Source: an uncultured Acidobacteriota bacterium
GTDB lineage: Bacteria; Acidobacteriota; Terriglobia; Terriglobales; Acidobacteriaceae
Direction: 5' to 3'
Length of the DNA: 64,000 nucleotides
NCBI GenBank assembly: GCA_963845725.1
Contig: CAWJTC010000008.1
Span: forward strand, 2,159-66,158
The notes beneath the pieces were generated by a model. The model saw only the letters and a program-made list of their open reading frames with translations. It searched no databases and was not told the origin of the DNA. Made by a program: the position numbers and the translations under genes. Shown here piece by piece: positions 23,405 to 39,287 of the stretch (its first letter is position 1; each line of letters begins with the position of its first letter).

Positions 23405-24447
23405 GAGTTCTACTGCTTGGCCCGTATCCGCCTCCGCATGGAGGAGTGGAAACTCATGTGGTGGCGCTGCGGCGGTTTCTGCTCGGGCACGAAATTCCCT
23501 GCGCGATCATCAATATTACGCGGCATCGAAAAAAGGAAGCAGATGAGATTTACTATCCGAGAAACGCGATTGCCCTGATCAGACGGCTGCTCGGTCTTCG
23601 CGACGACATTCTTCACCTTCACGTCGGCGGGATGCTCAGCCGGAGAGTATTGCGTCTAGGACTGCTTTGCACTCTGTTGCCTGGCAAGAAAACGGTCTTC
23701 ACCTTTCATTCCGGTGGCTATGCTTCCCTGCCCGAGGCGAAGGCTCTGACTTCGCGTTCTTTGGCTGGCCTGGTTTTTCGACGCTTCGACCGCCTGATCG
23801 GTGTGAACCAGCAGATCGTGAATTTTTTCCATCAATTAGGTGTGTCTCGGGAGCGAACGCGTTTGATTGCGCCCCACGCTTTTTTCGACGACGAGGTTAA
23901 CAACGGAGAGCTGCCAGAGGCGCTGTGCACGTTTTTTTCTGACCATCAGCCTGTATTGATTTCGGTCGGGCAATTGGAACCTGAGTACGACCTTCCGAGA
24001 CAGATCGATGTGATGGGGCCTGTCCGCGATAAATTCCCCAATGCGGGCTTACTGCTGCTCGGGCGTGGCACCCTGGAGAACGACCTTCGCCAGAGCATTG
24101 CCGGAAAGCCCTTTGCGAAAGACATTCTGCTATGCGGCGATGTCGCGCACGCACTTGCACTGACGGCCATCGCCCGGGCCGATGTCATGTTGCGCACGAC
24201 TCTTTACGATGGCGACGCCATCTCGGTGAGGGAAGCGCTTCATCTTGGAACGCCGGTGGTGGCGACAGACAACGGTATGCGTCCAACTGGAGTGCAACTC
24301 GTGGAGGGGGCCAGCGTCGAAGCGCTGCTTGCAGCCGTGGAGCGGACACTGCGAAGTTCTGAGGCAAACGCTGAGAAGAAAGTGCCGCTCCCTGACGAGA
24401 GCAATTTGGAAGCGGTCTTGCGAGTTTACGGGGAATTGTTAACGTAG
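23401..24447 (+). CDS. GT-B glycosyltransferase (family 4-like)
   Basis: Intact 348-aa ORF. Its ATGA overlaps the stop of the preceding gene. MRVLLLGPYPPPHGGVETHV plus SVREALHLGTPVVATDNG. Confidence 0.75.
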   Translation: MRVLLLGPYPPPHGGVETHVVALRRFLLGHEIPCAIINITRHRKKEADEIYYPRNAIALIRRLLGLRDDILHLHVGGMLSRRVLRLGLLCTLLPGKKTVFTFHSGGYASLPEAKALTSRSLAGLVFRRFDRLIGVNQQIVNFFHQLGVSRERTRLIAPHAFFDDEVNNGELPEALCTFFSDHQPVLISVGQLEPEYDLPRQIDVMGPVRDKFPNAGLLLLGRGTLENDLRQSIAGKPFAKDILLCGDVAHALALTAIARADVMLRTTLYDGDAISVREALHLGTPVVATDNGMRPTGVQLVEGASVEALLAAVERTLRSSEANAEKKVPLPDESNLEAVLRVYGELLT

Positions 24448-24448
24448 T

Positions 24449-25822
24449 TCACTGCGCGCCCCGGCCCAACATGACGATCTTGATGGTTTGAACCATGATC
24501 AACAGGTCCAGCCCAATGGACCCATTCTTGATGTAGAAAAGATCGTACTGGAGTTTCTCTTTGGCGTCTTCCAGAGTATTGCCGTACTTATAGCGAATCT
24601 GCGCCCAGCCGGTGATCCCTGGCCTCACCGCATGGCGTACCGGGTAATAGGGAATTTCCTTGGTCAGCCACTCCACAAACTCCGGACGCTCCGGGCGCGG
24701 CCCCACGAAGGCCATATCTCCTTTCAACACGCACCAGAGTTGGGGAATTTCATCAAGCCGCGAAATGCGGAGGGCTTTGCCGATGCGAGTGATGCGGGGA
24801 TCATCATTGTCTGCCCAAGTGGGGCCGGTATCGGCTTCGGCGTCGCGGCGCATGGTGCGGAATTTATAACAATAAAAAATCGCACCGCCTCGACCCATGC
24901 GCTTCTGGCGATAAAGTACTGGCCCGGGCGAATCCAGCTTGATGGCCAGAATCACGAAAGGAACGATGGGCAGCAGGGCCAGCAAAAGGAATGCCGAAAC
25001 CAGGATTGACAACAGCCGCCTCACGAGTACGAATCCCGTGCTGAAGCGGAAGCCCTCGGTGAATATCAGCCAACTGGGATAGAGTTGCTCGACTTCGATC
25101 CGGCCTGACATTCTCTCCAGCCAGGTGGTGGCTTCCTCCACTTTGATGCCCTTGACCCGGAGTTGCAGCAGTTCCCGCACGGGAAGCGTGCCCCGCCGGT
25201 CGGTCATGGCAACGATAACGCGATGAACGTGCTCATGCTGCACCTGCTCCATCAAGTGTGAGGCAACCGCATCGCGAGTGGTGGCGCCTTCCATCGCTCC
25301 GCTCCACCCCACAATTTCGACCCCCAGTTCAGAGCGGCTGCGCAGACCGTTCACCAGGCGCTGCGCTCGCTCGCCCGTACCCAGGACGTAGACTCGCTCG
25401 CGAAAATAGGGTTGTTGCACCAGCCAGCCATAGGCCGCCCGCCAGGCAAATAGTCCAAGGGTTAGAATCACCAGCCCGGCCAGCGCGGCGTTGTTGCCGG
25501 GTAGAAGCGATGGGAAGACATAGCTTACTCCGGCCAGGATAAAAGCCAGCAGGCCGGGCACCAGCAGCAGCCTGAAATAGAGTTCTCCCTTTTCATCGAA
25601 GCGCGTGGGGTCATAAAGATCGAACCAATAGGAAAAAAAAAGGACGAGCAGCGTCACCAGCAAAATCTTGAAATATCCGCCTTCGTAATTCAGGGCCACA
25701 TAGAGGTCGTCGCGGTGCTGGAGAACCATCCCCAAGAAAAAGGAGGAGCAGACGATCAGCGCCTCGCCTGCCATCAGAACGAGCGTGCGAACCGGGTAAT
25801 GAACGTTGAACAGCCGAATCAC
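24449..25822 (-). CDS. Polyprenyl-phosphate glycosyl-1-phosphate transferase (EPS priming enzyme, EpsB/WcaJ-like)
   Basis: Intact 457-aa ORF with N-terminal TM helices. Bacterial sugar transferase domain PGPVLYRQKRMGRGGAIFYCYKFRTM...DEIPQLWCVLKGDMAFVGPRP. Confidence 0.85.
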   Translation of the reverse strand: MIRLFNVHYPVRTLVLMAGEALIVCSSFFLGMVLQHRDDLYVALNYEGGYFKILLVTLLVLFFSYWFDLYDPTRFDEKGELYFRLLLVPGLLAFILAGVSYVFPSLLPGNNAALAGLVILTLGLFAWRAAYGWLVQQPYFRERVYVLGTGERAQRLVNGLRSRSELGVEIVGWSGAMEGATTRDAVASHLMEQVQHEHVHRVIVAMTDRRGTLPVRELLQLRVKGIKVEEATTWLERMSGRIEVEQLYPSWLIFTEGFRFSTGFVLVRRLLSILVSAFLLLALLPIVPFVILAIKLDSPGPVLYRQKRMGRGGAIFYCYKFRTMRRDAEADTGPTWADNDDPRITRIGKALRISRLDEIPQLWCVLKGDMAFVGPRPERPEFVEWLTKEIPYYPVRHAVRPGITGWAQIRYKYGNTLEDAKEKLQYDLFYIKNGSIGLDLLIMVQTIKIVMLGRGAQ

Positions 25823-25871
25823 GCTCTACCTCTTGAACCCTTCTCCGGGCGGCAGTTGCCGCATGAACTTT

Positions 25872-27365
25872 CTAGTCAAGCCGGATCGGGCGGGAATGCC
25901 AATTCAGGCCAATCGCACCAACATATTGCCGCGCCTCGATATTGCATGGCGCCGTGGTACACACTGTGCTGTTAAACAACTGGTTGTCGAACTGAAAGCT
26001 CAGGAAGAAATCAAAATAATGGCCTAGAGGACGTTGCGCCACCGCCCCGGCATACACGTACTGGAACGAATTGGTGGAGGGCGGGAGGACTCCTGACACG
26101 AAGCCAGGCTCAATCTGGTCATTGTGCGAATAACCGACATCCGCCGACCCTGTCCACACCCTGGTCAAAGGCCGGGAAACGGAAAAGCGCACAATGTCGC
26201 TGGTCGCGCCCAGGAAAAAGCCGGATCCACCGGTGTTGTAACGGTCATAAGATAATGCCAGCGCAGTTCGCGGAAAGCGGTAACGCAAGGAGGCATGCGC
26301 GCTGGCAGTGATAATTTGCTTCGAACCGCCAAACAATGGAGAGTTATTAATCACCGTCACTTGTGGACCAGCGCCCAGCGTCAGATCCAGTCTGCCAGAA
26401 ATGCGGTGGCCATACATGAAAGTTCCAACATGGGTAATGAACGAACTGCCTGGAATATTCGGGTATTGAAATTGCTGGAATCCGTATACGAAGGCAATCT
26501 GGGTTTTGCCGGTGACTTGATAGTTGTATCCCGCCTGCGCAGTGATCTGGTTGCTGTTAATGAAGCCGGCGGAGTTGTCGGTGAAGTGAATCAGCCCGTA
26601 TCCGCCGGCCAGCGTGATCGATGATCGCTTGCTCAGACTCTGGTCGAGGTCGACGATCGACAAATTGTCAATCCGGGATTGCTGGCCGACAGAGCCAAAC
26701 TCAGCAAGCGTGAAAATGCCCCCCAATCCCGTGCCCAATTCCTCACCCTCAAAATTAAGAGGACCGAGACCCAATGTGGAGGCGCCTGATTCTCCGTATA
26801 CGCCGAATCCGAACGACCCTTGGGGCAGATAGCTGAGCTGATCGCGAAAAGTGAGTTGCCCGCTTCTCCACATCAGCTTTTGTTCGCCGTCGAACTGATG
26901 AATCTGACTGATGCTGGGATCTTGCGACGGGTAGTAGATAACGCCGCCCACGTAATCGAAAGCGGTTAGCGAATGGCTGCTTACCTTTTGCAGCATGATG
27001 CTGCCCAAGGCACGGGTCACCCCCACAAGTCCGGAACTTACCACGTTGTTACCCACGTTCGAGTCCAGCGCTTCGCTGACGTGCGCACCCAGCATGAGGA
27101 AACTGCGGGCCGGAATGAAGGGCCCAAGTGGAGGTTGATCCAGTCCGGAAATCGGATAATTGTTAGTATCCGCCGGCGGCGGCGTCGAAATCGTGCCCTG
27201 CGCCTGACCCGTTGCAGAAGCAGGTGGATTCTGCGGGACATTGGCAGGACTCTGATTCTGCCCGCTGTCGTTCTGCGCCCAACTCGTGGCCAGCGCGAGC
27301 ATGACGACTACGAGGACACGAATCCCCGGTTGCCGCTTCGACCCGGTTCTATTAGGGAACGACAA
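25872..27365 (-). CDS. Outer-membrane beta-barrel protein of the EPS export operon
   Basis: Intact 497-aa ORF with a signal peptide and a Gln/Pro-rich linker. The body has alternating beta-strand character. Its start overlaps the Wza-like gene by 14 nt. Confidence 0.6.
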   Translation of the reverse strand: MSFPNRTGSKRQPGIRVLVVVMLALATSWAQNDSGQNQSPANVPQNPPASATGQAQGTISTPPPADTNNYPISGLDQPPLGPFIPARSFLMLGAHVSEALDSNVGNNVVSSGLVGVTRALGSIMLQKVSSHSLTAFDYVGGVIYYPSQDPSISQIHQFDGEQKLMWRSGQLTFRDQLSYLPQGSFGFGVYGESGASTLGLGPLNFEGEELGTGLGGIFTLAEFGSVGQQSRIDNLSIVDLDQSLSKRSSITLAGGYGLIHFTDNSAGFINSNQITAQAGYNYQVTGKTQIAFVYGFQQFQYPNIPGSSFITHVGTFMYGHRISGRLDLTLGAGPQVTVINNSPLFGGSKQIITASAHASLRYRFPRTALALSYDRYNTGGSGFFLGATSDIVRFSVSRPLTRVWTGSADVGYSHNDQIEPGFVSGVLPPSTNSFQYVYAGAVAQRPLGHYFDFFLSFQFDNQLFNSTVCTTAPCNIEARQYVGAIGLNWHSRPIRLD

Positions 27366-27966
27366 TGGTATCTCCTGGCTTGAGGGCGACGTCCCGGCCG
27401 CCGGGCTCGCCCTTCACAAGCCGCTTGTAGTTGACCGGAATCCGCTGCTCCGTTCCGCTTTCAGTGCGCAGAATATAGATGTGCTTGGTGTTGGCGAACT
27501 GCGTGAAGCCTGCGTCAGCTAGTGCCTGCAGTACGGTCATCCCGGGCTGCAATTGCAGCGCGCCAGTGTGCTGAACTTCTCCGGTGACGTAAATTTTCTT
27601 GCTGTTAATTTCCTTCACGACCACGGTGACACGCGGATCGCCGACGTACTTTCTCAGTTTCTCGGTGATGGCTGCCGCCAGTTGCATCGGTGTTAATCCT
27701 GCGGCTTGCACATCGTTCAGCAAGGGGAGAGAGATGCTGCCATCTGGCCGGACCGGCAGTGTGCTGGTGAGGTCGGGCTCCTTCCAGACCGAAACCATAA
27801 GCACATCATCCGGACCAATGACGTAACTCGATCCCGTAACGGGCGCAGACACACTTGACTGGGCCGGGGGCGGGCCTGGCTTATGGTTTGCCTGGGATGA
27901 ATTCCGCGCAGCCGCAAACTCCAGCAGCACCAACACCATTGCGAGCATCAGCCTCATTCTTATCAT
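27352..27966 (-). CDS. Polysaccharide export protein (Wza/EpsE-like, Poly_export + SLBB)
   Basis: Intact 204-aa ORF. YVIGPDDVLMVSVWKEPDLT...PVRPDGSISLPLLNDVQAAGLTPMQL is the classic Poly_export motif. Confidence 0.85.
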   Translation of the reverse strand: MIRMRLMLAMVLVLLEFAAARNSSQANHKPGPPPAQSSVSAPVTGSSYVIGPDDVLMVSVWKEPDLTSTLPVRPDGSISLPLLNDVQAAGLTPMQLAAAITEKLRKYVGDPRVTVVVKEINSKKIYVTGEVQHTGALQLQPGMTVLQALADAGFTQFANTKHIYILRTESGTEQRIPVNYKRLVKGEPGGRDVALKPGDTIVVP

Positions 27967-28419: not shown

Positions 28420-30816
28420 ATGAACCCACAATCTGCGTTCGCGGTTGACGTTGCCGAATTTGCCGCGGCCCTCTTGGCCCAGCAGGAGTCTGCCCCACGC
28501 GCGCAGTTAGTCGCAAATAAGGTTTCCGAGTTGCTGCTGGATACGGCAGTCGCGGTTTACCTCATCACGGACCAGGAAACTCCCGCCTGGACTGCCAAGG
28601 CAACCGCCGGCGATATCACGGTCGCTCAGACCGTAGAGTTTGACGCTGGAACGCTGGGAGCGGTAGCGGCGAAACGGGAACTCCTGGTGTTTGAGGTCAG
28701 CGGTCTTGCCCGGGAAGAATATGGCCACCTCGACATTCGACGGCAACTGGTCGCGCTCGCCTATGTACCCCTGCTGGTGAATGAGACTCTGATAGGCGCG
28801 ATCGAGTTGTTTCACTACGAACAGCCGTTTCCGGAAGCCATGCTGGAAGCGCTGAACGAGATCGCCGAGCTGGCTGCGCCGGCGCTCGCGGCGGCGCTTT
28901 TCTATGAAAGCGAGCGCAACACCAACCTGCACTCCATCAGCCGCGTCACCCAGATGTACGACCTGGAAAAGGTCTTCAATTCGACCCTGGAGATGGACGA
29001 ACTGCTGGGCACGATTGCGGGGAAGTTTCAGGAAGTCATGGCGGTGCAAGGCGTCAATTTGTGGATGGTCAATGGCGAAGATCTGGAATTGGTGGAGTGT
29101 GCCGGAGTCGACCGCACGGTGCAGGCTGGGATGGTGCAAAAACCGGGCGAAGGGATCGCGGGGGATCTCTCCGACAACGGCGAACCCGTGCTGATTGATG
29201 ATCCCGAGGATGAGCGCTTACAGAAGCGAAACCAAGGAGTGGAGGACGGGACTGTATTCTCCATCGTAGCCGCCGCGCTCATGGAGCACGATGCTCTGGT
29301 TGGCGTGGTTGAGGCGGTGAACCGGCTCGATGGGATGCCCTTCGACGAAGATGACGAGTTTCTGCTGACCAATATCTGCGAAACCGCCAGCAATGCGCTG
29401 CACAACGCCAGCTTGCTGCAAGCGGAACGCAAAGTGGAGATACTGGAAACCCTGGTTAAAGTCAGCAACGAAATTACCTCCACCCTCGACCTGGACCGGG
29501 TTCTGGACGCGATTGTCAACGGGCCCAGCAGCGTAATCCCTTATGAACGGGCGGCGATTGCGCTGGAGCAGCGGGGCCGTCTGCAACTGAAAGCAATAAC
29601 CGGGACGGCGAAGATAAATCCTCAAGACCCCGATACGTCGCGTCTACAGGAGTTGCTGGAATGGGCGTCATCGTCGAACCAGTCCATATTCGTGGTGCAG
29701 CACGGGGACGAAGTAGAGGACGAACGTCCCGAGACCCGCGCCAAGTTCGAGAAGTACTTTGCGGACAGCGGGATGCGCGCCTTTCATGCACTGCCGCTGG
29801 CGGATGACGACGGCACCGTGGGTATTCTTTCGTTCGAAAGCAGCGATCCGGATTTCCTCAGCACCGCCCATCTGGAAATGATCAAGGTGCTGGCCGGACA
29901 GGCGACGGTGGCGCTGCGCAATGCTTCCCTATATCGCGAAGTGCCATTCATAGATCTGCTCGAGCCCATCCTGGCAAGGAAACGCAAGTTCCTCGCGTTG
30001 GAGAAAGGCCGGCGGACGACCCTGGTGGCGGCAGCGGCTGTCGCCCTCTTGTTTTTTGCGGTTTTCCCCTTGCCGCTTCGTGTGGATGGCCCGGCTGTGG
30101 TTGCACCTGCGCATAGTGCGCGTGTGCAACCTGAAGTTGCAGGCGTGGTGCAGGCGGTGAACGTGCGAGAAGGTGATGCCGTGAAACAAGGCACCGTTCT
30201 GGCTCGGCTTGCGGATTGGCAATACCGCGACGAACTTGCCGCGGCCCAGGCCAAGTATGAGACCGCAGTTTCGCAAATGAACCGTGCGCTCGCTGCCAAC
30301 AACGGCACCGAGGCCGGCATCGAGCGCATCCAGGCGGACTACTGGTCTTCTGAAGTCGCCCGCGCCCGCGAGCGTTTGGAAAAGACACTGCTACGGTCTC
30401 CCATCGCCGGTCTGGTGGCCACACCCAATGTCGAGGACTCAGTCGGGCGCGATCTGAAACCCGGCGATACCTTTGCAGAGGTCGTCGATACTTCGCGCGC
30501 CACGGTGGATGTTGCCATCGACGAGCACGATGTTCCCCTCCTCCGCCAGGGAGACGAAGCCTCGGTGAAGCTCGAAGGATTTCCCTCGACCACGTTTCAC
30601 GGCGAGGTAATGGTTGTGAGCCCCAAGGGCCAGTTGCAAGGCGACGATCACGTCTTTTTTGCGCGGGTCAGCGTACCCAACAATCGGGGGCTGATCCGCG
30701 CCGGGATGCAAGGTCGCAGCAAGGTCTTTACCGCCTGGAGGCCTGCTGGAGAGGTCTTCTTCCGACGGCCCGCTATGTGGCTGTGGTCGGAAATTTGGTC
30801 GTGGTTTGGCTGGTGA
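28420..30816 (+). CDS. Triple-GAF sensor fused through one TM helix to a periplasmic membrane-fusion (HlyD-like) domain
   Basis: Intact ORF. The ATG at 28420 (MNPQSAF...) is preferred over the upstream extension. Three GAF-like blocks, then TM TTLVAAAAVALLFFAVFPLPL, then lipoyl/beta-barrel adaptor motifs (VQPEVAGVVQAVNVREGDAVKQGTVLARL, LRSPIAGLV) and a Trp-rich tail ...MWLWSEIWSWFGW. Confidence 0.8.
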   Translation: MNPQSAFAVDVAEFAAALLAQQESAPRAQLVANKVSELLLDTAVAVYLITDQETPAWTAKATAGDITVAQTVEFDAGTLGAVAAKRELLVFEVSGLAREEYGHLDIRRQLVALAYVPLLVNETLIGAIELFHYEQPFPEAMLEALNEIAELAAPALAAALFYESERNTNLHSISRVTQMYDLEKVFNSTLEMDELLGTIAGKFQEVMAVQGVNLWMVNGEDLELVECAGVDRTVQAGMVQKPGEGIAGDLSDNGEPVLIDDPEDERLQKRNQGVEDGTVFSIVAAALMEHDALVGVVEAVNRLDGMPFDEDDEFLLTNICETASNALHNASLLQAERKVEILETLVKVSNEITSTLDLDRVLDAIVNGPSSVIPYERAAIALEQRGRLQLKAITGTAKINPQDPDTSRLQELLEWASSSNQSIFVVQHGDEVEDERPETRAKFEKYFADSGMRAFHALPLADDDGTVGILSFESSDPDFLSTAHLEMIKVLAGQATVALRNASLYREVPFIDLLEPILARKRKFLALEKGRRTTLVAAAAVALLFFAVFPLPLRVDGPAVVAPAHSARVQPEVAGVVQAVNVREGDAVKQGTVLARLADWQYRDELAAAQAKYETAVSQMNRALAANNGTEAGIERIQADYWSSEVARARERLEKTLLRSPIAGLVATPNVEDSVGRDLKPGDTFAEVVDTSRATVDVAIDEHDVPLLRQGDEASVKLEGFPSTTFHGEVMVVSPKGQLQGDDHVFFARVSVPNNRGLIRAGMQGRSKVFTAWRPAGEVFFRRPAMWLWSEIWSWFGW

Positions 30817-30830
30817 ACCGAGGTGACGTC

Positions 30831-31720
30831 ATGAAACAAGACATCTTGATTGGGCTGGCGATTCTGATACTGGGCTTGAGTGGATGTAGCGGATCGAGAG
30901 AGACAGTCGCGGCCGCTGCCCCGGTTCAACCGCCTGAGCAGCCAGTCAGCGTACAAAAGGAAAATGTCTTCGTCGCCTCAGGCCCAATCGTGGTGGAGAA
31001 CGAGGTGGATGTCAGCGCATTGCGAGAATGGCCTGGTGGTGGAGATCTTTGCCCAGCCCGGCACTCAGGTTCGCAAGGGACAACTTCTGGCCAGACTCGA
31101 CGACCGCGAGATATCCGACGACGTTGAGGCCGCAGGCTGCCAGAGTCCGGTCGATAGAGGCAAATCTCAAGAATTGGCAGGCTGAGACCAAAGTTCTGCA
31201 GGCCGACCGCACTCGTGCCGAGAAACTGTACGAAGCGCAGGTCATTCCCAAGGAAGAACTGGAGCACGCGCAATACAAGGAAGAGGCCGACGAATACGAA
31301 GTACAGCGTGAAGCCGAAAGCCTGAATAACGCCAAGGCGACGGAAAAATCACTCGAAGTGGAGCGGGACAAAACCGATATCGTCGCTCCCTTCGGCGGAA
31401 TCGTCGCTCGCCGTTACGTGCGCGTCGGCCAGAGGGTTGCGGTCGGGGACCGACTTTTCTGGGTCACGGCGATGGGCCCCTTGCAGGTGAAATTCGCCCT
31501 GCCGGAACGTTTTTTTGGAAAGCTGCACGACGGCGAGCAGTTCACGGTGAGTTCGGCCGACATTTCTCCCGAAGCCAAGTACCCCGCCAGAATCGTTCAG
31601 GTCAGCCCGGTGGTGGATCCGGCGAGCGGAACGATTGACGTCCTGGCCCAGGTGGTCGGATCAGCTCCCGGCCTTCGGCCCGGCATGCTGGTGAACATCA
31701 GTCTCAGTCAGCAGCCATGA
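30831..31720 (+). pseudogene. Lipoprotein membrane-fusion (RND/HlyD adaptor-like) protein with two same-direction frameshifts
   Basis: ATG at 30831 after GAGGTGA. Lipobox LILGLSGC. ENGLVVEIFAQPGTQVRKGQLLARLDD reads only after a shift near 31022. QAARVRSIEANLKNWQAE...IVAPFGGIVARRYVRVGQRV reads after a second shift near 31135. Confidence 0.7.
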
Positions 31721-33867
31721 ACATCCTCGAAGCTCTGGATGTAGCGCTTCCGGAACTGCCGACGAAGAGTGCCCGCAAGAGCTATCCCAAGCTCGATCCT
31801 CAGGTCATATCCAAAGAGCACATTGAGCACGGAGTGCCGACCGTCCTCGCCAAAATGCCGGGCAGCAATAGTTTTGTCCGGCTCACCCCAGAGCAGTGGA
31901 AACTGCTTGAATTGTTCGATGGCGAACGGACGTACCAGGACGTTGCGGGCCTGACGGAAGAGGCAACCGGCGTAGCGTTTACGGAAGACGATGTGAAAGA
32001 GTTCGCATCCTTCCTGCAAGACCAGACCGACCTCTTCTACCGCACGCCGCTGGAAAAGAACATTACTTTAAAGCAGAAAGTGGGTGCCGATCGTCATAAG
32101 CGCAACCGCTTCGCAGTGGCCGACATCACGGACATCACGCTCCATCGCTGGCCGCGCGCCGACGATTATCTGACCAAACTCCAGCCCTACGTGCAGTTCG
32201 TTTACACGACTTGGTTCACCGTGCTCACGCTCCTCTGTTTTGGCGTCATGGTCTGGATGTGGGCTGACAAGGCGGGCGAAATCTGGGACGACAGCTTTCG
32301 CTTCTACAACTTCACGCAAAAGGGTTTCTGGGACCTGGTTGAGTTCTGGTTTCTGTTCGGGGCCATGGCCTTTTTCCACGAGTCGGGTCACGGTATGACC
32401 TGCAAGCAGTTTGGCGGAAAAGTGGAAAAGATGGAATTCCTTTTGATGTTTTTCGCGCCCACCTTCGTCTGCGATGTAACCCAGATCTGGATCATCGGCG
32501 ACCGCAAGGCCCGCCTGGCCACCATCATCTCCGGCATCTGGATCGACCTGATTATTTGTTTTCTGGCGACGACTATCTGGTGGGCAACCGTCCCTGGCAT
32601 GTGGATCCATGACTTCGCTTACAAGGTCATTATGGTTTCGGGGATCGGGGTCACGCTGCTAAACCTGAATCCCCTCATAAAACTCGACGGTTACTACATG
32701 TTTTCCGAAGTGGTAGGGGAGGCCGACCTGAAGGAACGGACCACCGTGTACGTTTCGGAATGGGTGAAAAAGAACCTCTTCGCCCTGCCCGTCGAAGTCG
32801 AATACATCCCCAGACGACGACGTTTTCTATATATCCTCTACGCGCTGCTATCAGGTATTTACAGCTACCTGCTGATTTTGTTCGTAGTTATTTTCATCTA
32901 TAACGTGCTGCGGTCCTACACTCCGGAGTATGCCTGGATACCGGGGTTGCTGGTCGCGTACCTCATGTTCAAATCGCGGATTCGGAAGCTGGTGAGATTT
33001 ATGAAGGACGTTTACCTGGACAAGAAAGATCGGTTGCGAGCGTGGTTTACCCCCACACGTACAATTGCCGTTTCCGCTGTGGCGCTGCTGCTGCTCCTGG
33101 CGCCGGTGTGGCCTGACTTCGTCGAGGGCCGCTTCGTGATTGAGCCCGCACAGCAGGCGGTGATCCGCGCGGAGGTGCCAGGAGTTGTGACGCAGGTGCT
33201 GGCCGCTGAGGGCCAGTCCGTCACACCGGGGGCCGTGCTGCTACGACTGCAAAACCTGGAACTTGAGTCGGCGGCAGCCCAGGCTGAGGCGGGGTTGCGT
33301 GAGGCGTCCGCCCGGGCGGCAGACGCGGGTCTGCACTACTCCGATTTCGGACGAGCCGAGCGCGTGCGCCAGGAAATGTCTCAGCGCTACCGCACTCTGG
33401 CTGATCAAGTCGGACATTTGCAAGTGGCGAGCCCGATTGCCGGTGTCGTGGTTACACCGCAGTTGAACGACCTACTGGGAAGCTACGTGGAGGCAGGGGC
33501 GCAAATGGTGGATGTCGCGAACCTCAGCACAATGCAGGCGCGAATTTACATCCCACAGTACGGGGTTCGCGACGTTCGAATCGGCACTAGAGTGCGGCTG
33601 CAATTGCACTCACAGTTCCTACCCATTTCGGGAACGCTGGCCTCGATCGCGCCTCTCTCCTCGCCAATCGATCCTGGCTTGGTCGAGAAGGCGGAACTGA
33701 GTGGCATCGTGCCGCCAGCATTCTATGTTGGCTCCGTAAGGCTTAAGAACAATGGAAGCCTCCGAGAAGGAATGACCGGTGCCGCCAAGTTGTTCGTTCG
33801 ACATCGCAGCGCAGCTGAAATGACGTGGAGATTCGCGCGCGACCTGGTGCGGCGTCGATTCTGGTAA
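31717..33867 (+). CDS. PqqD/RRE-like domain + M50 (site-2-protease family) intramembrane metalloprotease + C-terminal membrane-fusion (HlyD-like) domain
   Basis: Intact 716-aa ORF whose ATGA overlaps the preceding stop. HESGH at 32377-32391 and NLNPLIKLDG at 32662-32691 (both M50 signature motifs). Multiple TM helices. Adaptor motifs VIRAEVPGVVTQVLAAEGQSVTPGAVLLRL and VASPIAGVV. Tail ...MTWRFARDLVRRRFW. Confidence 0.85.
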   Translation: MNILEALDVALPELPTKSARKSYPKLDPQVISKEHIEHGVPTVLAKMPGSNSFVRLTPEQWKLLELFDGERTYQDVAGLTEEATGVAFTEDDVKEFASFLQDQTDLFYRTPLEKNITLKQKVGADRHKRNRFAVADITDITLHRWPRADDYLTKLQPYVQFVYTTWFTVLTLLCFGVMVWMWADKAGEIWDDSFRFYNFTQKGFWDLVEFWFLFGAMAFFHESGHGMTCKQFGGKVEKMEFLLMFFAPTFVCDVTQIWIIGDRKARLATIISGIWIDLIICFLATTIWWATVPGMWIHDFAYKVIMVSGIGVTLLNLNPLIKLDGYYMFSEVVGEADLKERTTVYVSEWVKKNLFALPVEVEYIPRRRRFLYILYALLSGIYSYLLILFVVIFIYNVLRSYTPEYAWIPGLLVAYLMFKSRIRKLVRFMKDVYLDKKDRLRAWFTPTRTIAVSAVALLLLLAPVWPDFVEGRFVIEPAQQAVIRAEVPGVVTQVLAAEGQSVTPGAVLLRLQNLELESAAAQAEAGLREASARAADAGLHYSDFGRAERVRQEMSQRYRTLADQVGHLQVASPIAGVVVTPQLNDLLGSYVEAGAQMVDVANLSTMQARIYIPQYGVRDVRIGTRVRLQLHSQFLPISGTLASIAPLSSPIDPGLVEKAELSGIVPPAFYVGSVRLKNNGSLREGMTGAAKLFVRHRSAAEMTWRFARDLVRRRFW

Positions 33868-33900
33868 CCACGCCCCCATCCGAACCCCTTAAAACACAAA

Positions 33901-33923
33901 AAGGGCCTGACTCGCAGGCCCTT
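33901..33923. terminator. Hairpin between convergent genes; it works as an intrinsic terminator for the minus-strand repeat ORF (T-tract on that strand)
   Basis: AAGGGCCTG-ACTCG-CAGGCCCTT, a perfect 9-bp stem. On the minus strand it is followed by TTTGTGTTTT. Confidence 0.65.
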
Positions 33924-33962
33924 CTTGGCGACATTCCAAACGGAATTCTAAGGTTGAAGCTG

Positions 33963-34301
33963 TTATGCCGGCCGAACTGCTGGCCGTACCGCTGGCCTCA
34001 CCGCCGGACGCACTGCTGGCCGAACTGCCGGGCGTACAGCGGGTCTGACGGCAGGGCGCACCGCTGGCCGAACTGCGGGTCTAACGGCGGGGCGTACCGC
34101 TGGTCGAACTGCTGGCCGGACCGCCGGGCGTACGGCTGGCCGGACGGCTGGGCGTACTGCTGGCCGGACGGCTGGGCGTACTGCTGGCCGGACGGCTGGG
34201 CGTACTGCGGCAGCAATCTGAGGTGACTGAGTCGGGGTGGCCAGGATAGCCTTCTTCACCGCCGTCCGCTGACTGATGAGAGACTTTTTTTGGACTGACA
34301 T
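33963..34301 (-). CDS. Hypothetical, extremely basic 112-aa protein: 31-aa unique N-terminus followed by 20 perfect Ala-Val-Arg-Pro repeats
   Basis: ATG at 34301 lies 8 nt after AAGGAG. A sigma-54 promoter lies upstream and a hairpin terminator downstream. All repeat-unit differences are synonymous in this frame only. Confidence 0.7.
   Translation of the reverse strand: MSVQKKSLISQRTAVKKAILATPTQSPQIAAAVRPAVRPAVRPAVRPAVRPAVRPAVRPAVRPAVRPAVRPAVRPAVRPAVRPAVRPAVRPAVRPAVRPAVRPAVRPAVRPA
33969..34208 (-). repeat. Coding minisatellite: 20 x 12-nt units (the first six form 3 identical 24-nt units)
   Basis: Read directly from the sequence as GCN GTN (CGN/AGR) CCN x 20. Confidence 0.95.
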
Positions 34302-34374
34302 TTGGAATCTCCTTTTTTATTTTGATTTCTCAATCGCGCCGGCTGAGCACCTCAGCGCTTACGCCTGTTCATGT

Positions 34375-34390
34375 AGCAAGGTGGATGCCA
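34375..34390 (-). promoter_or_regulatory. Sigma-54 (-24/-12) promoter upstream of the AVRP-repeat ORF
   Basis: The minus strand reads TGGCATCCACCTTGCT, against the consensus TGGCAC-N5-TTGCW with exact spacing and one mismatch. It lies about 75-90 nt upstream of the ATG at 34301. Confidence 0.7.
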
Positions 34391-34514
34391 AACTAACCCG
34401 GCCGGCGCCAGAAAAAGGGAACTTAGTATTTTCAGATACTTGCGGGCCGCAGCCAAGATTCGTGACACATCCGACGAAAGCTTGGAAATGGAATGGGTTA
34501 AAAATCAAACCTAC

Positions 34515-34564
34515 AAGGTATTAATATTTAATCGTTCGTCTATCAGAAGGTTAATTCCTAATCG
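34515..34564 (-). promoter_or_regulatory. Pair of AT-rich direct repeats, a possible upstream activator site for the sigma-54 activator
   Basis: AAGGTATTAATATTTAATCG (34515-34534) and AAGGTTAATTCCTAATCG (34547-34564), 125-175 nt upstream of the -24 element. Confidence 0.3.
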
Positions 34565-34565
34565 C

Positions 34566-35975
34566 CTAATCCTTCCCGATGCGGTACTTGCGGCACAGAT
34601 AGTGCATCTTCTGTTTATCGATTTGCAGCAGGCGCGCGGCGCCCATCTTACTGCCCCCAGACCGCCGTAACGCTGCTTCCAGATACGCGACCTCGATGCG
34701 CGCAATCTCCTCATCGAACTTGACCCCTTCCTCCGGAATCAGCAACGACTCCTGGGAGGTTGCGCTGTTGTAGAGAATCCGTTGAGGCAGGTGTTGCACT
34801 TTGATGATCGGCCCATCCACCATCAGAACCAGCCGTTGCACCAGGTTTTCCAGTTCTCGCACGTTGCCCGGCCAGGGATCCTCCTCTAAAATCTGGATGA
34901 CCTCAGGATCGAGGTGTTTGAAGGGAGCGCCATTCTGGGCACAATAAGTGCGCAGGAAATGGTCGATCAGCAGAGGAATGTCTCCTGACCGCTCCCGTAG
35001 CGGCGGCAGGGCGATGGGTACGACGTTGATACGATAATACAGGTCCTCGCGAAAACGGCCGGTGTGGACCATGTCCTCCAGGTCCTCGTTGGTGGCAGTG
35101 ATGAGCCGGAAGTCGATTTTCTTGGGATTGTGCCCGCCGATGCGGGTCACTGCGCGGCCTTCCAAAACCCGCAATAATTTCGACTGCAGGGCCAGCCCCA
35201 GAGTGGCAATCTCGTCCAGAAACAAAGTGCCGGTGTGTGCTAACTCTATGTGTCCCTGCCGGGCTTCCTTAGCATCGGTGAAGGCGCCTTTTTCGTGGCC
35301 GAACAGCTCAGTTTCGATGAGATTTTCGGGCAGAGCGGCGCAGTTGATGCTGATAAAAGGTTTCTCGGCCCGGGGTCCCATGCTGACGATGGCTCGCGCC
35401 ACCAGTTCCTTCCCGGTTCCGCTCTCGCCGCGGATCAGCACCGTGCTGTTGCTGTCAGCGACCCGGGTAATGGCCTCATAGACGCGGCGCATGGTCTCAC
35501 TGGCGCCAATCAGTTCGCCGAACGATTCCTGCTGCGCCTCTTGCTCCTGCCGTCGCTGGTAATCGATCTCTATGGCGCGCTTTTCAAGCGCACGGCCGAG
35601 GACAACCCGGACCTCTTCAAAGTTGATCGGGGCCACAAAATACTGATCGACGGTGGCCTCGATGGCCTTGTGCCGTAACTTACGACTGTCGGAGCGGGTG
35701 AGAGCCACCAGCACCAAATCGGGCCCAACCGACCGCAATTCCGCGAGCGCCGTGATCCCTCGTTCGCTATTGTCCCCGACGGTATCGATATCCAGGAGTA
35801 TGGCGTCGGGCAACTGTTTCTTTATCAATGCCAACAGCTCATCCCAGGTCTGAAACACGTGAAGGTCGTAGTCGGGCGCGAGATAGGTTTCGGCCTCAGG
35901 GCCGACTAACTCGTCACCGGTAACAATGGCAATGCGGTAACGGGAGGGCAGATTGCGGGTGGCTGCGGCGCGCAT
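34566..35975 (-). CDS. Sigma-54-dependent transcriptional activator (NtrC-family bEBP) with an atypical receiver domain and a Fis-type HTH
   Basis: Intact 469-aa ORF, ATG after GGGAG. Walker A GESGTGKE, GAFTDA (a GAFTGA variant), LFLDEI, and C-terminal HTH AARLLQIDKQKMHYLCRKY. The REC-like N-terminus carries ...YFVAPI... where K-P is expected. Confidence 0.9.
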   Translation of the reverse strand: MRAAATRNLPSRYRIAIVTGDELVGPEAETYLAPDYDLHVFQTWDELLALIKKQLPDAILLDIDTVGDNSERGITALAELRSVGPDLVLVALTRSDSRKLRHKAIEATVDQYFVAPINFEEVRVVLGRALEKRAIEIDYQRRQEQEAQQESFGELIGASETMRRVYEAITRVADSNSTVLIRGESGTGKELVARAIVSMGPRAEKPFISINCAALPENLIETELFGHEKGAFTDAKEARQGHIELAHTGTLFLDEIATLGLALQSKLLRVLEGRAVTRIGGHNPKKIDFRLITATNEDLEDMVHTGRFREDLYYRINVVPIALPPLRERSGDIPLLIDHFLRTYCAQNGAPFKHLDPEVIQILEEDPWPGNVRELENLVQRLVLMVDGPIIKVQHLPQRILYNSATSQESLLIPEEGVKFDEEIARIEVAYLEAALRRSGGSKMGAARLLQIDKQKMHYLCRKYRIGKD

Positions 35976-36224
35976 GGTTCTCCCAAGAAGCGCTTTGATT
36001 ATGACAAATTTCCTGCCGCTTGGGGTGAATTTTTCACCTTAGGCGGCACGAAGGCTTCTCCACGCCGGTTCTTCAGCTTATGTTCATTGATTCCTGGGAC
36101 GGCAGCGAGGTGTGCTTGAAAAATCCAACGGATTCCCGTAACTTTAGCACGCCTGTTGAAAACCTCCCAGCGCCACGCTTTGGGCGGTCATTGGGAGTTG
36201 CTTTTCTCACGAAGGAGAATTCGT

Positions 36225-36563
36225 TTGGACATCAATGTCCGTAAGCGTTCTGAAGTGCAACTGTTCCAGCTTCGTGGTCCGCTAAGGATGGGACCCGCAG
36301 TGGATGGATTACGTCAGGCAATGGAGGAAGTTATAGGCCAGGGCGACCATCGTTTTGTCATCAATCTTGCCGAGGTAAACATGATTGATTCCAGCGGGAT
36401 CGGCCTGCTGGTGCGGTTTCTCGCATCCACCAAGAAACAGGGCGGAAGCATCAAACTGGTCCAGCCCTCGAAGTTTGCCGTACAAACGCTGAAGCTGGTG
36501 GGAGTGCTCAATCTGTTCGAAATCTTCGAGGATGACGACACGGCGGTGGCATCCTTTTCTTGA
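36225..36563 (+). CDS. STAS-domain anti-sigma-factor antagonist (SpoIIAA/RsbV-like)
   Basis: TTG start 7 nt after AAGGAG gives about 112 aa. The phosphorylatable-Ser region is INMIDSSGIGLLV. Confidence 0.75.
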   Translation: MDINVRKRSEVQLFQLRGPLRMGPAVDGLRQAMEEVIGQGDHRFVINLAEVNMIDSSGIGLLVRFLASTKKQGGSIKLVQPSKFAVQTLKLVGVLNLFEIFEDDDTAVASFS

Positions 36564-36609
36564 GTCTTATGTTTTGGATTGGTTCGGATCCCCACGGAGA
36601 TGAGCCTTT

Positions 36610-37047
36610 ATGGCCAATGAACCCAGCCCTGACGCGAGTAGCAGCTTCACCGAACTGCTTAACCTTAGCCTGCCTGCAAATTCAGAGTCGATCGCCATCA
36701 TTACCGCGGCCATTTCGGAAATCCTCGAGCGGCTGGAGATTCCGGAACAGAAGAGGTTCGAGATCGACCTGGCGGTGCAGGAGGCCCTGGCCAACGCTGT
36801 GGTTCACGGATGCGAGGGAGATGCATCGAAGACCATCGGGTGCAGGTTGAATGGCGATCAAAAGGGCCACATCGTGATTTCGGTGAGCGATCCGGGCCCT
36901 GGCTTCCGGCCCGAGGCGATTCCCGATCCTAAGCGTGCCGACGGTCTGTACGGCGACCACGGCCGCGGGGTTTACCTGATCCGGCAGTTGATGGATGAAG
37001 TTCAGTTTGAGCGTGGCGGGGCCGAAATCAAGATGTGGAAGTATTGA
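36610..37047 (+). CDS. Anti-sigma regulatory factor / serine kinase (RsbW/SpoIIAB-like HATPase)
   Basis: Intact 145-aa ORF. EALANAVVHG (N-box) and SDPGPGF...GRGVYLIRQLMDEV (G-boxes). Confidence 0.75.
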   Translation: MANEPSPDASSSFTELLNLSLPANSESIAIITAAISEILERLEIPEQKRFEIDLAVQEALANAVVHGCEGDASKTIGCRLNGDQKGHIVISVSDPGPGFRPEAIPDPKRADGLYGDHGRGVYLIRQLMDEVQFERGGAEIKMWKY

Positions 37048-37080: not shown

Positions 37081-37800
37081 TTAATCCGCATCCGAGGGTT
37101 GGCGGGCGAACTCGCGGAACCTGAATTGCGCTTCCAACGAATCCAGCCATGACTGGAGGATGGCCCCGGAATTCTTTTCCACGTAGAGGAAGCGCAGGCC
37201 CATGACAAACGAATCGGCCCACACCACATCCGCCTTGGCGTGAAAAACTTGCGGATCAAGACTGGGCACCTCGAATTCCACAATAACCACGCCTTGCAAT
37301 TTAACCGGGTCCACCGGCCGAATAGCCAACCCACCCTCGCTCACGTTCTTCATCTTCGCGCTTAGCGATTCCCCCAGGGTGTTGTGAAACCGCACTGGCA
37401 GATCGACATCGTAGCGGAAATATCTCTGATGTTCACGCTCCATCTTGGGAATGGCGCTATCCAGCAGGCTCCGCAATCGGGTCTCCTGAATCGGCTTGCA
37501 GAGCACAAAGTTGGCTCCTAAATCGAGCGCGGTTTCGGCGCTGGTCAGATGGTTGACCACAGCGAAAATCGTGCACTGCTTATTGGAGCGGCTGTTGCGG
37601 ACTTGGGCCAGAGCTTCAGTACCGCCGTGCACGTCATCGCAGTCAATGACCAGTCCGTCCAAGTGACGCCGGGAGGCAAGTTCGATGGCACTGGCGGAAT
37701 CTTGCCGTAGATCAAGCGAGGCGCGACGCCCGCTTAAACCTGCCATGATTTGGTCCAGCAGGGTGGTATCGGAAGTTACGACCAGGCACTCTACGCCCAT
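37081..37800 (-). CDS. Response-regulator receiver domain fused to a PilZ-like domain
   Basis: Intact 239-aa ORF. REC motifs (LVIDCD, FVLCKP). The C-terminal half has NVSEGGLAIR (D/NxSxxG) after an imperfect RxxxR region (QRYFRYD). Confidence 0.65.
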   Translation of the reverse strand: MGVECLVVTSDTTLLDQIMAGLSGRRASLDLRQDSASAIELASRRHLDGLVIDCDDVHGGTEALAQVRNSRSNKQCTIFAVVNHLTSAETALDLGANFVLCKPIQETRLRSLLDSAIPKMEREHQRYFRYDVDLPVRFHNTLGESLSAKMKNVSEGGLAIRPVDPVKLQGVVIVEFEVPSLDPQVFHAKADVVWADSFVMGLRFLYVEKNSGAILQSWLDSLEAQFRFREFARQPSDAD

Positions 37801-37891
37801 GACCCAATGATAGAGATGGCTGTATCTGCCTCAAAGTAACCGACGGGCATGGCCCTGTCAGTACCGCTCACAAGCTATTGTTACTAAGCCG

Positions 37892-38986
37892 TTATTTTCG
37901 GGCCTGGATATTGGCGGCCTCCGGTGGGCCGACATTGGGTGGCATTTCTCCCGTCAGTGAGTTCAGAAAGGCTTGCAGGTCACTGCGCTCCTTCCCACTC
38001 AGGAAATCCAGTACGTGGATTTTACTGTCCAGATTAGGGTTCGAGTTGCCCGCTCCAATGTAGAAGTCGATGACCTCCTTCAGGTTTTTGAGGCTGCCAT
38101 CGCTCAAATAAGGCGCAGTTTGCGCAATGTTCCGCAGGGAAGGCGTTTTGAATTTACCTTTGTCGGCTTCGTTATGAGTTACGGCAAAGAGGCCGACATC
38201 GGTGATTTCCCCCGCGTCGACGCCCACGCCGACGTTGTGGAATTGGTTATCCGTGAAAAGCGCGCTCCTGTCTCCCACTAGATGGCAGGCGGCACAATTG
38301 CCTTTTTTTCTGGAAGTAAACACAACAAAGCCGCGCTTCACTGCCGCGTCCACAGCTTTCTCATCATGGCCGTATTTCCAGCGATCGAATGGCGAGTTGC
38401 CACTCACGACCGTCCGTTCGAAGGAAGCGATGCTCTTCTCTACCATTTCGTAAGTAATCGGCTTCGGGCCCCACGCCTGAGCGAATTCTTCGCGGTAGCT
38501 CGGGTTTGCATTCAGCCGTTGTTCAACGGTGGCCAGCGTTGTGGCCATTTCCACCGGGTTCTGGACCGGCCCCTCGGCCTGCTTTTCCAGGCTGGGAGCG
38601 CGGCCATCCCAGAATTGTGCCTTAAAATAGGCCGCGTTTACGACCGGGGGAGAGTTGCGGTTTCCCAGCTTCCTGGCTACGCCTTCGGAGAATTGCTTTG
38701 GATCGGCGAAGCCATACTGCGGGCTGTGACAAGTTGCGCAAGAAACGGTGTTGTCCGTCGAGAGGATGGGGTCGTAATAGAGGCGTCGGCCCAGCGCAAT
38801 CGTTTCCGCGGTGGGCGGGTTATCGGCTGGAATCGGTACCGGCGGAAGCCCGAGCGGTGCTTTGATCTGTACCGGCTTGCCAATGGGTATGACCCTGGAA
38901 ACCTTTTCATCCTCACTTTGCAGCAGTACTGTAGAAGCGAAAACGGCGAGCAAGAACATGAAGAAGAAAATCCTGCGGGAATTCAT
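37892..38986 (-). CDS. Di-haem cytochrome c peroxidase (CCP/MauG family)
   Basis: ATG at 38986 after GGGAGGG, with a signal peptide. Two CxxCH motifs (CATCH, CAACH) at the spacing expected for the family. Confidence 0.85.
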   Translation of the reverse strand: MNSRRIFFFMFLLAVFASTVLLQSEDEKVSRVIPIGKPVQIKAPLGLPPVPIPADNPPTAETIALGRRLYYDPILSTDNTVSCATCHSPQYGFADPKQFSEGVARKLGNRNSPPVVNAAYFKAQFWDGRAPSLEKQAEGPVQNPVEMATTLATVEQRLNANPSYREEFAQAWGPKPITYEMVEKSIASFERTVVSGNSPFDRWKYGHDEKAVDAAVKRGFVVFTSRKKGNCAACHLVGDRSALFTDNQFHNVGVGVDAGEITDVGLFAVTHNEADKGKFKTPSLRNIAQTAPYLSDGSLKNLKEVIDFYIGAGNSNPNLDSKIHVLDFLSGKERSDLQAFLNSLTGEMPPNVGPPEAANIQARK

Positions 38987-39287
38987 AAAGCCCTCCCAAC
39001 GACCGCGTGTGGCGGGCCGCTGCACTGGCGCTGCACCAAGACCAAGATCAGTTCCCGCCGGAAGTTCCGGCAACGTAGCGGCAGTTTGGGTGAGAACTAA
39101 TTTTGTTGTAGCCGGTCGCGCAAGCGCCTATTGCGTCGACTCATTAGCGATTAGAAAACCCGTTGGCCGTAAAAGCGATGACCTTCGGCACCGATTCGTG
39201 TGAGCAGGGTCACACCAAAGGGACACTCACTTTGGTTTGGATTTCTGGCACGTTTGCAGATTCACAGCACGCTATGATTGGCCAGCT

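Follow-up and report, generated by a model that had tools for sequence, protein, structure and literature searches.

A candidate RRE-guided leader peptidase fused to a periplasmic adaptor in a conserved, pump-less gene module of Acidobacteriota

Introduction

Periplasmic adaptor proteins are thought to work only around an energised pump. A locus in the metagenome-assembled genome of an uncultured soil bacterium (Terriglobales, Acidobacteriota) raises the question of what such adaptors serve when no pump gene lies beside them. The 64,000-nt stretch of DNA analysed here (assembly GCA_963845725.1, contig CAWJTC010000008.1, positions 2,159 to 66,158; hereafter the window) carries three co-directional genes at 28420-33867. 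Gene 1 encodes three GAF domains, a transmembrane (TM) helix and an adaptor domain; gene 2 encodes a lipoprotein adaptor; gene 3 joins an M50/site-2-protease core to a third adaptor domain. An earlier note on this DNA had described the triad and proposed that the protease stands in the pump's place and, gated by ligands of the GAF array, processes a peptide or a membrane-tethered factor for release across the envelope. Its coordinates enclose the triad and miss half of the conserved module, which continues at 33897-37047 with a candidate precursor gene, a sigma-54 promoter, an activator gene and a STAS/RsbW-like pair.

The protease carries a predicted RiPP recognition element (RRE; RiPP, a peptide made on the ribosome and then modified post-translationally) at its N-terminus. 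We propose, with the case for and against this reading evenly balanced in our judgement, that gene 3 encodes an RRE-guided leader peptidase in a pump-less adaptor assembly, which would process and probably export sigma-54-induced peptides.

Results

Gene 3 combines a predicted RRE, a site-2-protease-like core and a periplasmic adaptor

The database product identical to that of gene 3 is named 'MAG: HlyD family efflux transporter periplasmic adaptor subunit [Terriglobales bacterium]'. Among characterised proteins, gene 3 is most closely related to MpaP, which removes the leader in the daptide system. Residues 24-419 align with positions 1-367 of the 379 positions of the NF041824 profile (daptide_HExxH intramembrane metalloprotease) with an E-value of 1.2e-40 and 139.8 bits, which marks gene 3 as a homologue of this family, not as a member of it. 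A weak match to the YydH/LiaK model NF058609 was also observed (4.9e-6). MpaP consists of an RRE fused N-terminally to an intramembrane site-2 protease and removes the leader peptide in an RRE-dependent manner (Ren et al., 2023, PMC10036551).

The N-terminal 158 residues of the window protein alone gave no Pfam match; the RRE emerged only through family-wide scans and profiles. Pfam PqqD is matched by 17 of 30 members of the gene 3 family (best 2.2e-5). A family profile compared with the sequences of the PDB retrieves PqqD (3g2b, 1e-4), TbiB1 (5v1u, 6e-4) and PqqCD (6e-3). In the AlphaFold2 model of this region (predicted local distance difference test score, pLDDT, 82.7), three β-strands (residues 31-37, 40-46 and 53-56) are followed by three α-helices (58-65, 73-84 and 90-103). 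The top four fold matches of the model are TbiB1-leader complexes (probability 0.97-1.0, TM-score 0.61-0.64), followed by TfuB1 and SkfB. The sequence profile and the predicted fold thus both identify the N-terminus as a PqqD-like RRE.

The polytopic core retains both catalytic signatures, HESGH (32377-32391) and NLNPLIKLDG (32662-32691), each within predicted helices of the AlphaFold2 model. The earlier note had described these signatures as intact, and the residues H221, E222, H225, P319, D324 and G325 proved invariant among 42 relatives, down to 21% identity. Peptidase_M50 (PF02163) scores 25.2 bits on the window protein, just below the gathering cut-off of 27.2, and many orthologues have a precomputed PF02163 match. 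A fold search with full-length gene 3 returned adaptors only and no solved site-2 protease for the core; the adaptor domain dominated the results. This C-terminal domain matches HlyD_3 (9.3e-14) and HlyD_D23 (3e-11) in Pfam, and Foldseek aligns it with MexA, AcrA, MacA and ZneB (approximately 2e-13, target TM-score 0.67-0.72). No membrane-proximal domain is visible in the model; an amphipathic, Trp-rich helix (residues 699-715) is observed at the end instead. Taken together, sequence and model indicate that a single gene 3 chain comprises an RRE, a site-2-type protease that looks active and a periplasmic adaptor.

Three adaptors are encoded together with no pump nearby

The layout, domains, junctions and motifs that the earlier note had ascribed to the three genes were all found where it had placed them (Pfam, NCBIfam and sequence). 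The stop codon of gene 1 (30816) is separated from the ATG of gene 2 (30831) by 14 nt, and genes 2 and 3 overlap in an ATGA at 31717-31720. In gene 1, three Pfam GAF domains (approximately residues 20-170, 192-327 and 357-501) precede a single strong hydrophobic segment, the TM helix (residues 535-553), and an adaptor domain (residues 565-763; HlyD_D23 2.2e-23, HlyD_3 and Biotin_lipoyl_2). The start codon is uncertain, with an in-frame GTG at 28315 as the alternative. The protein ends in a Trp-rich tail, and the C-termini of the gene 1 and gene 3 products are both basic and rich in Trp. Hidden Markov model searches classify all three adaptor domains as membrane-fusion-protein-like (HlyD_D23/HlyD_3, all above the Pfam gathering cut-off). 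Gene 1 also exceeds the cut-off of the RND adaptor model TIGR01730, RND_mfp (109.6 versus 94.9 bits), as does a fragment of gene 2.

With the intact L002 orthologue as the tblastn query (related loci are given as L numbers), the homology of gene 2 is spread over three frames (30879-31028, 31015-31146 and 31124-31711), which indicates two single-base indels, near 31013-31028 and 31124-31146. The earlier note had reported the two frameshifts. They are present in the sequence, and as biology they are probably an artefact of assembly, since the essential gene guaA is also split in the window and the gene 2 orthologues are intact (301-305 aa). The guaA gene (GMP synthase, 43925-45503, minus strand) is divided into two overlapping open reading frames (ORFs) that do not share a frame. 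One of them, 45039-45503, aligns with residues 2-138 of GMP synthases of solved structure, and the remainder lies in 43925-45112. This split suggests single-base indel errors in the assembly. In further metagenome-assembled genomes (MAGs), some labelled 'MFD', genes 1 or 2 are likewise broken by frameshifts (L001 6699-9099, L018 9247-10001 and L073 6631-9995), and these breaks look like the same type of artefact.

The lack of a pump, also claimed earlier, was upheld over a wider range. No ABC, RND, MFS or outer-membrane efflux protein (OEP) family was detected among 27 flanking or large ORFs of the window, and a scan of the whole window for the Walker A, signature and Walker B motifs of ABC ATPases was empty. 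Among 83 related loci from several phyla, such motifs occur in only three, and in 80 no pump lies within 10 kb.

The triad recurs across Acidobacteriota

The same three genes occur in identical order in more than 40 genomes, which argues that the triad did not arise by chance; tblastn places gene 1 orthologues at the equivalent position in more than 40 loci. The GAF-adaptor, the adaptor and the protease-adaptor, together with a nearby and usually convergent activator gene, were found by tblastn in 42 of 42 acidobacterial-type loci. These are the loci of L001-L044 and L073 that have flanking sequence, and they include MAGs labelled Eisenbacteria and Binatia. The wider flanks vary between loci. 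The RRE-protease region alone falls into 331 clusters (50% identity) at E≤1e-30, a number that rises to 4823 at E≤1e-10. Most full-length matches measure approximately 680-830 aa, a length that means fusion with an adaptor. When each species was represented by a single genome, at least 542 relatives were found in Acidobacteriota, Gemmatimonadota, Planctomycetota, Verrucomicrobiota, Oligoflexia, Nitrospira and others.

Some arrangements depart from the usual layout. In L043 (8864-12864), the GAF-adaptor gene directly abuts the protease-adaptor gene, and a gene-2-like sequence lies approximately 3 kb downstream on the opposite strand. In L008 (17833-20403, plus strand), the activator gene is 5.7 kb from the triad and on the opposite strand to the usual layout.

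A small convergent gene encodes the candidate precursor

A small gene on the opposite strand faces gene 3. It is preceded by the ribosome-binding site AAGGAG, and the strongest terminator hairpin of the region lies downstream of it. The product begins with the leader MSVQKKSLISQRTAVKKAILATP (MSVQKKSLIS...) and continues into a hypervariable cationic repeat tail with a C-terminal Ala. A counterpart was found at the equivalent place in 28 related loci (32 copies), with the consensus M-x-[IV]-[QE]-KKSLI[SG]...KKA..A. Lys6, Ser7 and Leu8 are invariant despite the use of 2, 5 and 5 different codons, respectively, and nearly all copies have GGAG upstream. The small gene is therefore a real coding gene under selection at the protein level. 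The tails vary even among close relatives, with repeats such as VRPA, VSAAVRPK, PAKA, ARVTPH, GTLAK, NLGGK, NLATK, QVGLSK, AGR, AGVAK and VAK. The RRE of gene 3 and this conserved candidate precursor next door strengthen the general idea of peptide processing. A membrane-tethered substrate, as the earlier note had also entertained, is not indicated, for the candidate substrate has no hydrophobic segment.

A profile search with the leader retrieved small proteins, at least 1270 in number. Among the 120 highest-scoring ones, every length falls within 40-77 aa, every annotation reads 'hypothetical' and none has a Pfam domain. Three leader proteins on long contigs were checked reciprocally. In all three cases, the gene lies between the activator gene and the gene of a 717-aa protease-adaptor, with a 301-305-aa adaptor, an approximately 800-aa GAF-adaptor and a STAS gene alongside. 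No Pfam or NCBIfam model is matched above threshold by any leader; the sub-threshold matches are Planc_extracel (0.033, for a Nitrospira protein described below) and an ammosamide/lymphostin leader (0.061), both of which serve as leads only.

The displaced activator gene of L008 is followed by a tandem pair of small precursor genes (80 and 104 aa, with IRPA/VRPA repeats), which have moved along with it. In L041 and L043, a leader of the IKLTxEQ..ATG type, as in Gemmatimonadota, is found behind an activator gene and a sigma-54 site. The 191-aa product of L041 (9929-10504, minus strand) starts with the leader VVIKLTNEQQEAIRRATG..., after which a unit of E.ARKAP and six further residues recurs approximately 13 times. 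It resembles a precursor with multiple cores in which a motif of the cleavage type is repeated. We considered whether the repeat tails in general are cut into many short peptides at [RK]xAP-like sites. This scheme fits L041, L032, L022 and L004 and was rejected, as approximately half of the tails contain no proline. In the Acidiferrales-type loci L033-L040, the interval between the activator and protease-adaptor genes holds one to three tandem Lys-rich ORFs of 26-40 aa in the position of the Terriglobales repeat peptide (for example, MAKKTLKKAKKIEATKPLIQVGGNLR and MATKSKAIKSGKKLESAKKLEKKQTLQVKPLMTFK).

The small gene lies behind a conserved sigma-54 promoter

A promoter-like -24/-12 element, TGGCATccaccTTGCT, is located upstream of the small gene. 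In the window overall, the sigma-54 pattern has 30 matches against 35 expected; there is no enrichment, and a lone site is not above chance. When 41 loci were compared (GG and GC exact, at most two mismatches), 39 had an equivalent site on the right strand, versus one of 41 for a control region of the same size upstream of gene 1. The site is credible because of this conservation relative to the control. Direct control of the triad by the activator was dropped as an explanation, given the single locus with a site upstream of gene 1.

The activator gene is transcribed towards the small gene. Its product matches Sigma54_activat (1.7e-69), HTH_8 and, weakly, Response_reg in Pfam. The receiver domain is atypical: TGDE replaces the DD acidic pair, Ala replaces the conserved Lys before Pro, and no histidine kinase gene is adjacent. 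Input to the activator may come from the STAS/RsbW-like pair, in which the RsbW/SpoIIAB-like protein probably acts together with the STAS protein. In 37 loci, the window among them, the module has a STAS homologue on its flank, and the pair adjoins the activator gene in L001 too.

Relatives in other phyla are linked to N-terminal leaders

In the Gemmatimonadota loci L046, L052 and L064, the triad is directly preceded by one to three small genes, arranged in tandem and in the same direction. Their leaders comprise 37-44 residues and end in ELEERIAP (or ELEEKIAP, ELEARIAP), after which only 3-11 residues follow. The daptide leader motif ELExMEAP ends at the cleavage site, with proline at position -1 (PMC10036551), and the ELEERIAP end is similar to it.

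In Oligoflexia, the cluster consists of OEP, protease-adaptor, adaptor, in some cases GAF-adaptor, and a giant protein of 2079 or 1226 aa (L045 421-14121; L047 8269-18386). The OEP genes are adjacent to the module in both loci; L047 has a second one, and no pump lies within 22 kb of it. The giant proteins begin with MAKTEKKDSGKKKVAKLKGKKLEDRIAP or ...KKLEERIAP, a Lys-rich stretch ending in KKLE[DE]RIAP that is followed by a conserved GM.GGG..DPG, and no Sec-type hydrophobic signal was found in them. A verrucomicrobial locus (L051 1-6609, minus strand) encodes two large repeat proteins with LEPRIAP and LEDRIAP N-termini. In Nitrospira (L076 3618-8279, plus strand), a cadherin/Big_9/RTX protein begins ...MESLEPRLLLSA; its match to Pfam Planc_extracel ('Planctomycete extracellular'), with an E-value of 0.033, is below the cut-off and serves as a lead only. 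These sequence comparisons tie the protease family to N-terminal leaders across phyla, with apparent TolC-family partners where the genes happen to cluster. The Oligoflexia relatives, which flank the same genes with TolC-family OEP genes and no pump, give indirect support to the earlier idea that the protease occupies the place of the pump.

Genomic surroundings of the module

The features of the module are listed in Table 1. Directly upstream of gene 1, the window encodes (22169-27966) two GT4 glycosyltransferases, a Bac_transf sugar transferase, a 497-aa protein of no family and a Wza-like Poly_export/SLBB protein. These polysaccharide biosynthesis and export genes were rejected as partners because they are not conserved beside the module in L001-L003. 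L001 and L002 have an ORF of 169-182 aa upstream of gene 1 that is missing from the window. Beyond the STAS/RsbW-like pair (37081-39073, minus strand) lie the genes of a receiver-PilZ protein, a possible cyclic di-GMP effector, and a di-haem cytochrome c peroxidase. Farther away (12569-16159, minus strand), a 1196-aa protein combines CarboxypepD_reg with an outer-membrane β-barrel and resembles TonB-dependent receptors. Similar genes near the module in L002 and L085 are probably a coincidence.

Table 1. Location of the module features in the window.
Feature	Coordinates	Strand	Description
Gene 1	28420..30816	+	three cytoplasmic GAF domains, one TM helix, periplasmic adaptor (membrane fusion protein); Pfam, TIGR01730
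Gene 2	30831..31720	+	lipoprotein periplasmic adaptor, lipobox LSGC (LILGLSGC); Pfam/NCBIfam matches on fragments
Gene 3	31717..33867	+	716 aa; predicted RRE, site-2-protease-like core and adaptor; AlphaFold2 mean pLDDT 85.8
Predicted PqqD-like RRE of gene 3	31786..32031	+	residues ~24-105; family scans, profile, fold
Polytopic M50/site-2-protease-like core	32158..33051	+	NF041824 1.2e-40; catalytic motifs; predicted helices
Periplasmic adaptor domain of gene 3	33109..33864	+	lipoyl, α-hairpin (residues 514-566), β-barrel; Pfam, Foldseek
Hairpin terminator	33897..33927	-	13-bp stem and T-tract, between convergent gene 3 and small gene
Candidate precursor gene	33963..34301	-	112 aa, convergent with gene 3; leader, short spacer, ~20 VRPA repeats
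Sigma-54 (-24/-12) promoter-like element	34375..34390	-	upstream of small gene; one mismatch to consensus
Sigma-54 enhancer-binding protein (activator)	34566..35975	-	atypical receiver, AAA+ (GAFTDA), Fis-type helix-turn-helix; transcribed towards small gene
STAS-domain protein (anti-sigma-antagonist-like)	36225..36563	+	divergent from activator; Pfam STAS 1.9e-15
RsbW/SpoIIAB-like serine-kinase-type protein	36610..37047	+	Pfam HATPase_c_2 3.6e-27

Discussion

Comparison with known systems

The module combines parts of known kinds, an RRE-dependent intramembrane leader peptidase and periplasmic adaptors. No paper on an M50-HlyD, RRE-HlyD or GAF-HlyD architecture was found in full-text searches of the literature, and no curated model of this system was found in Pfam or NCBIfam. 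Like the daptide protease (MpaP/DapP, NF041824), gene 3 has an N-terminal RRE and an intramembrane site-2-type metalloprotease, homologous over residues 24-419. Unlike it, gene 3 carries a periplasmic adaptor domain at its C-terminus and is accompanied by two further adaptors, of which one has GAF domains. The host is Gram-negative and the precursor is under sigma-54 control, unlike in the daptide system. The daptide precursor has a hydrophobic core ending in Thr, whereas the precursor here has another leader and a cationic repeat tail ending in Ala. No daptide-modifying enzymes (DUF-RRE, oxidative decarboxylase, aminotransferase or methyltransferase) were found nearby in the window or in L001-L003, where the neighbours are adaptors, regulators and polysaccharide genes.

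All three proteins share the lipoyl/α-hairpin/β-barrel fold of the adaptors of tripartite efflux and type I secretion (MexA, AcrA, MacA and HlyD). The module lacks what defines those systems, a cognate transporter: no ABC, RND or MFS transporter is encoded in the operon or its flanks. Adjacent TolC-family genes are a feature that the Oligoflexia relatives share with them. Moreover, two of the adaptors are fused to cytoplasmic or membrane modules (the GAF array; the RRE and protease), and the gene 3 model has no membrane-proximal domain, unlike the efflux and type I secretion adaptors. In the C39 peptidase-ABC and HlyD systems for double-glycine-leader bacteriocins, leader recognition and cleavage are physically coupled to an adaptor-containing export apparatus. 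The module appears to share this logic with different parts: C39 is a cytoplasmic cysteine peptidase fused to a transporter, whereas gene 3 encodes an intramembrane zinc enzyme fused to an adaptor, and the module has neither an ATPase nor a Gly-Gly leader motif. YydH/LiaK, the TMcin protease TmcP and Enterococcus Eep are intramembrane metalloproteases that free a small peptide from a precursor. To our knowledge, none of these proteases occurs as an adaptor fusion or together with GAF-adaptor proteins. ABC exporters serve the YydH and Eep systems. For TMcin, which has the S2P-like intramembrane leader peptidase TmcP, export is also assigned to an ABC transporter (PMC13252029).

A leader peptidase in an adaptor assembly

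In the mechanism that we propose, the sigma-54 activator, perhaps with input through the adjacent STAS/RsbW-like pair, would switch on the small convergent gene. Its product would comprise a conserved N-terminal leader and a fast-evolving cationic repeat tail. The cytoplasmic RRE of gene 3 would bind the leader, and the site-2-protease core would cleave it. The adaptor domains of genes 1, 2 and 3 may form a mixed periplasmic ring around the protease and dock on a TolC-type channel encoded elsewhere, through which the released peptide would leave the cell. The GAF array of gene 1 may modulate this assembly from the cytoplasmic side.

The assignment of gene 3 as an RRE-guided leader peptidase is supported by the homology of its RRE and protease to the daptide leader peptidase (1.2e-40), the invariant motifs and the confirmed adaptor fold. 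It is further favoured by the synteny of the triad and the activator gene, by the linkage of the small gene to the module, its selection at the protein level and its conserved sigma-54 promoter, and by the ELEERIAP leaders of the Gemmatimonadota precursors and the related leaders of L041 and L043. The rarity of ABC-ATPase motifs (three of 83 loci) also fits a pump-less assembly. The export part is favoured by the Oligoflexia clusters, in which OEP genes and giant KKLE[DE]RIAP proteins with no Sec-type signal accompany the genes.

Several observations weigh against this mechanism. Site-2 proteases usually cut inside or beside membrane helices, and the tail of the small protein is non-hydrophobic. 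The Terriglobales leader (KKSLIS...KKAILA) lacks the ELExxxAP motif, and hence no cleavage site is assigned. Gene 3 scores 139.8 bits against NF041824, below the curated cut-off of 300. Export of a polycation against the membrane potential would need an energy source, and neither a translocase nor an energy source for export is evident. A tblastn search with two OEP queries, which has limited sensitivity, detected no TolC/OEP gene beside the module, either in the window or in the acidobacterial loci. Finally, the known relatives use ABC exporters, as in the case of TMcin (PMC13252029).

Alternative explanations

The company that the module keeps (the activator, the STAS and RsbW-like proteins, and the PilZ-receiver protein) would also suit a signalling role by regulated intramembrane proteolysis in which nothing is exported. 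On this view, the small protein regulates, for example, the activator or the partner-switching pair, its level set by RRE-guided cleavage in a feedback loop with the activator; the adaptors would be periplasmic scaffolds or sensors and the GAF domains the cytoplasmic sensor. Site-2 proteases classically act in signalling (RseP and SpoIVFB). The joint relocation of the small gene and the activator gene in L008 is consistent with this arrangement, as is the fact that no translocase or pump was found. However, three separate α-hairpin adaptor domains are hard to explain without a conduit, and hypervariable tails are unusual for a regulator that needs a constant binding partner. The Oligoflexia system, accompanied by OEP genes and giant extracellular-type proteins with a like leader, also speaks for transport. 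We consider the signalling explanation unlikely.

Two further explanations appear considerably less probable still, and we regard each as highly improbable. The small repeat protein might be no substrate at all, for example a sigma-54-induced polycationic nucleoid or matrix protein, with the RRE reading another peptide encoded elsewhere. Its Lys/Ala/Pro repeat tails presumably resemble histone-like proteins such as AlgP, and the Terriglobales leader has no ELExxxAP motif. Yet a short conserved N-terminus with a free-running tail is the layout of a leader and core, the module holds no other conserved small gene, and the small genes found at the corresponding position in Gemmatimonadota, immediately before the triad, encode a leader of the daptide type. 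Alternatively, the three proteins could be efflux adaptors of the ordinary kind, working with a pump and a TolC whose genes lie elsewhere, with the protease and GAF fusions as accessories and the proximity of the small gene as a coincidence. That linkage is far too consistent for coincidence. Acidobacterial genomes hold many pumps, public annotation names gene 3 an efflux adaptor, and the generic RND adaptor model TIGR01730 recognises both gene 1 and a fragment of gene 2. In contrast, the pump is lacking within 10 kb in 80 of the 83 loci across several phyla, no membrane-proximal domain is visible in the gene 3 model, and the RRE together with the invariant protease site points to a peptide substrate.

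Implications

Beyond the leader-peptidase mechanism, the fusion and its partner adaptors might constitute the inner-membrane core of an unrecognised pump-less, TolC-dependent and leader-reading secretion route across the envelope, a proposal that we put forward tentatively and hold to be rather doubtful. The cargo of such a route would vary widely: in Terriglobales, cationic repeat peptides induced through sigma-54; in Gemmatimonadota, peptides only 3-11 residues long; and in Oligoflexia and Verrucomicrobia, giant proteins that resemble adhesins and whose K-rich leaders end in ...LE[DE]RIAP. The 'Planctomycete extracellular' motif, an N-terminal sequence of the LExRxLL type, may belong to the same route.

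At least 542 species-level genomes, spread over several phyla, conserve three adaptors together with an intramembrane protease and no pump. If the assembly exports its product, diderms would have in it a new route for the maturation and release of peptides, and in some lineages of very large proteins, and it would give a function to more than 1000 unannotated small proteins that are common in soil Acidobacteriota. If it only processes a signal, the module would still join sigma-54 control, partner switching, GAF sensing and RRE-guided proteolysis. Because the cultured strain Granulicella sp. S190 (L017) carries the module, it is open to experiment.

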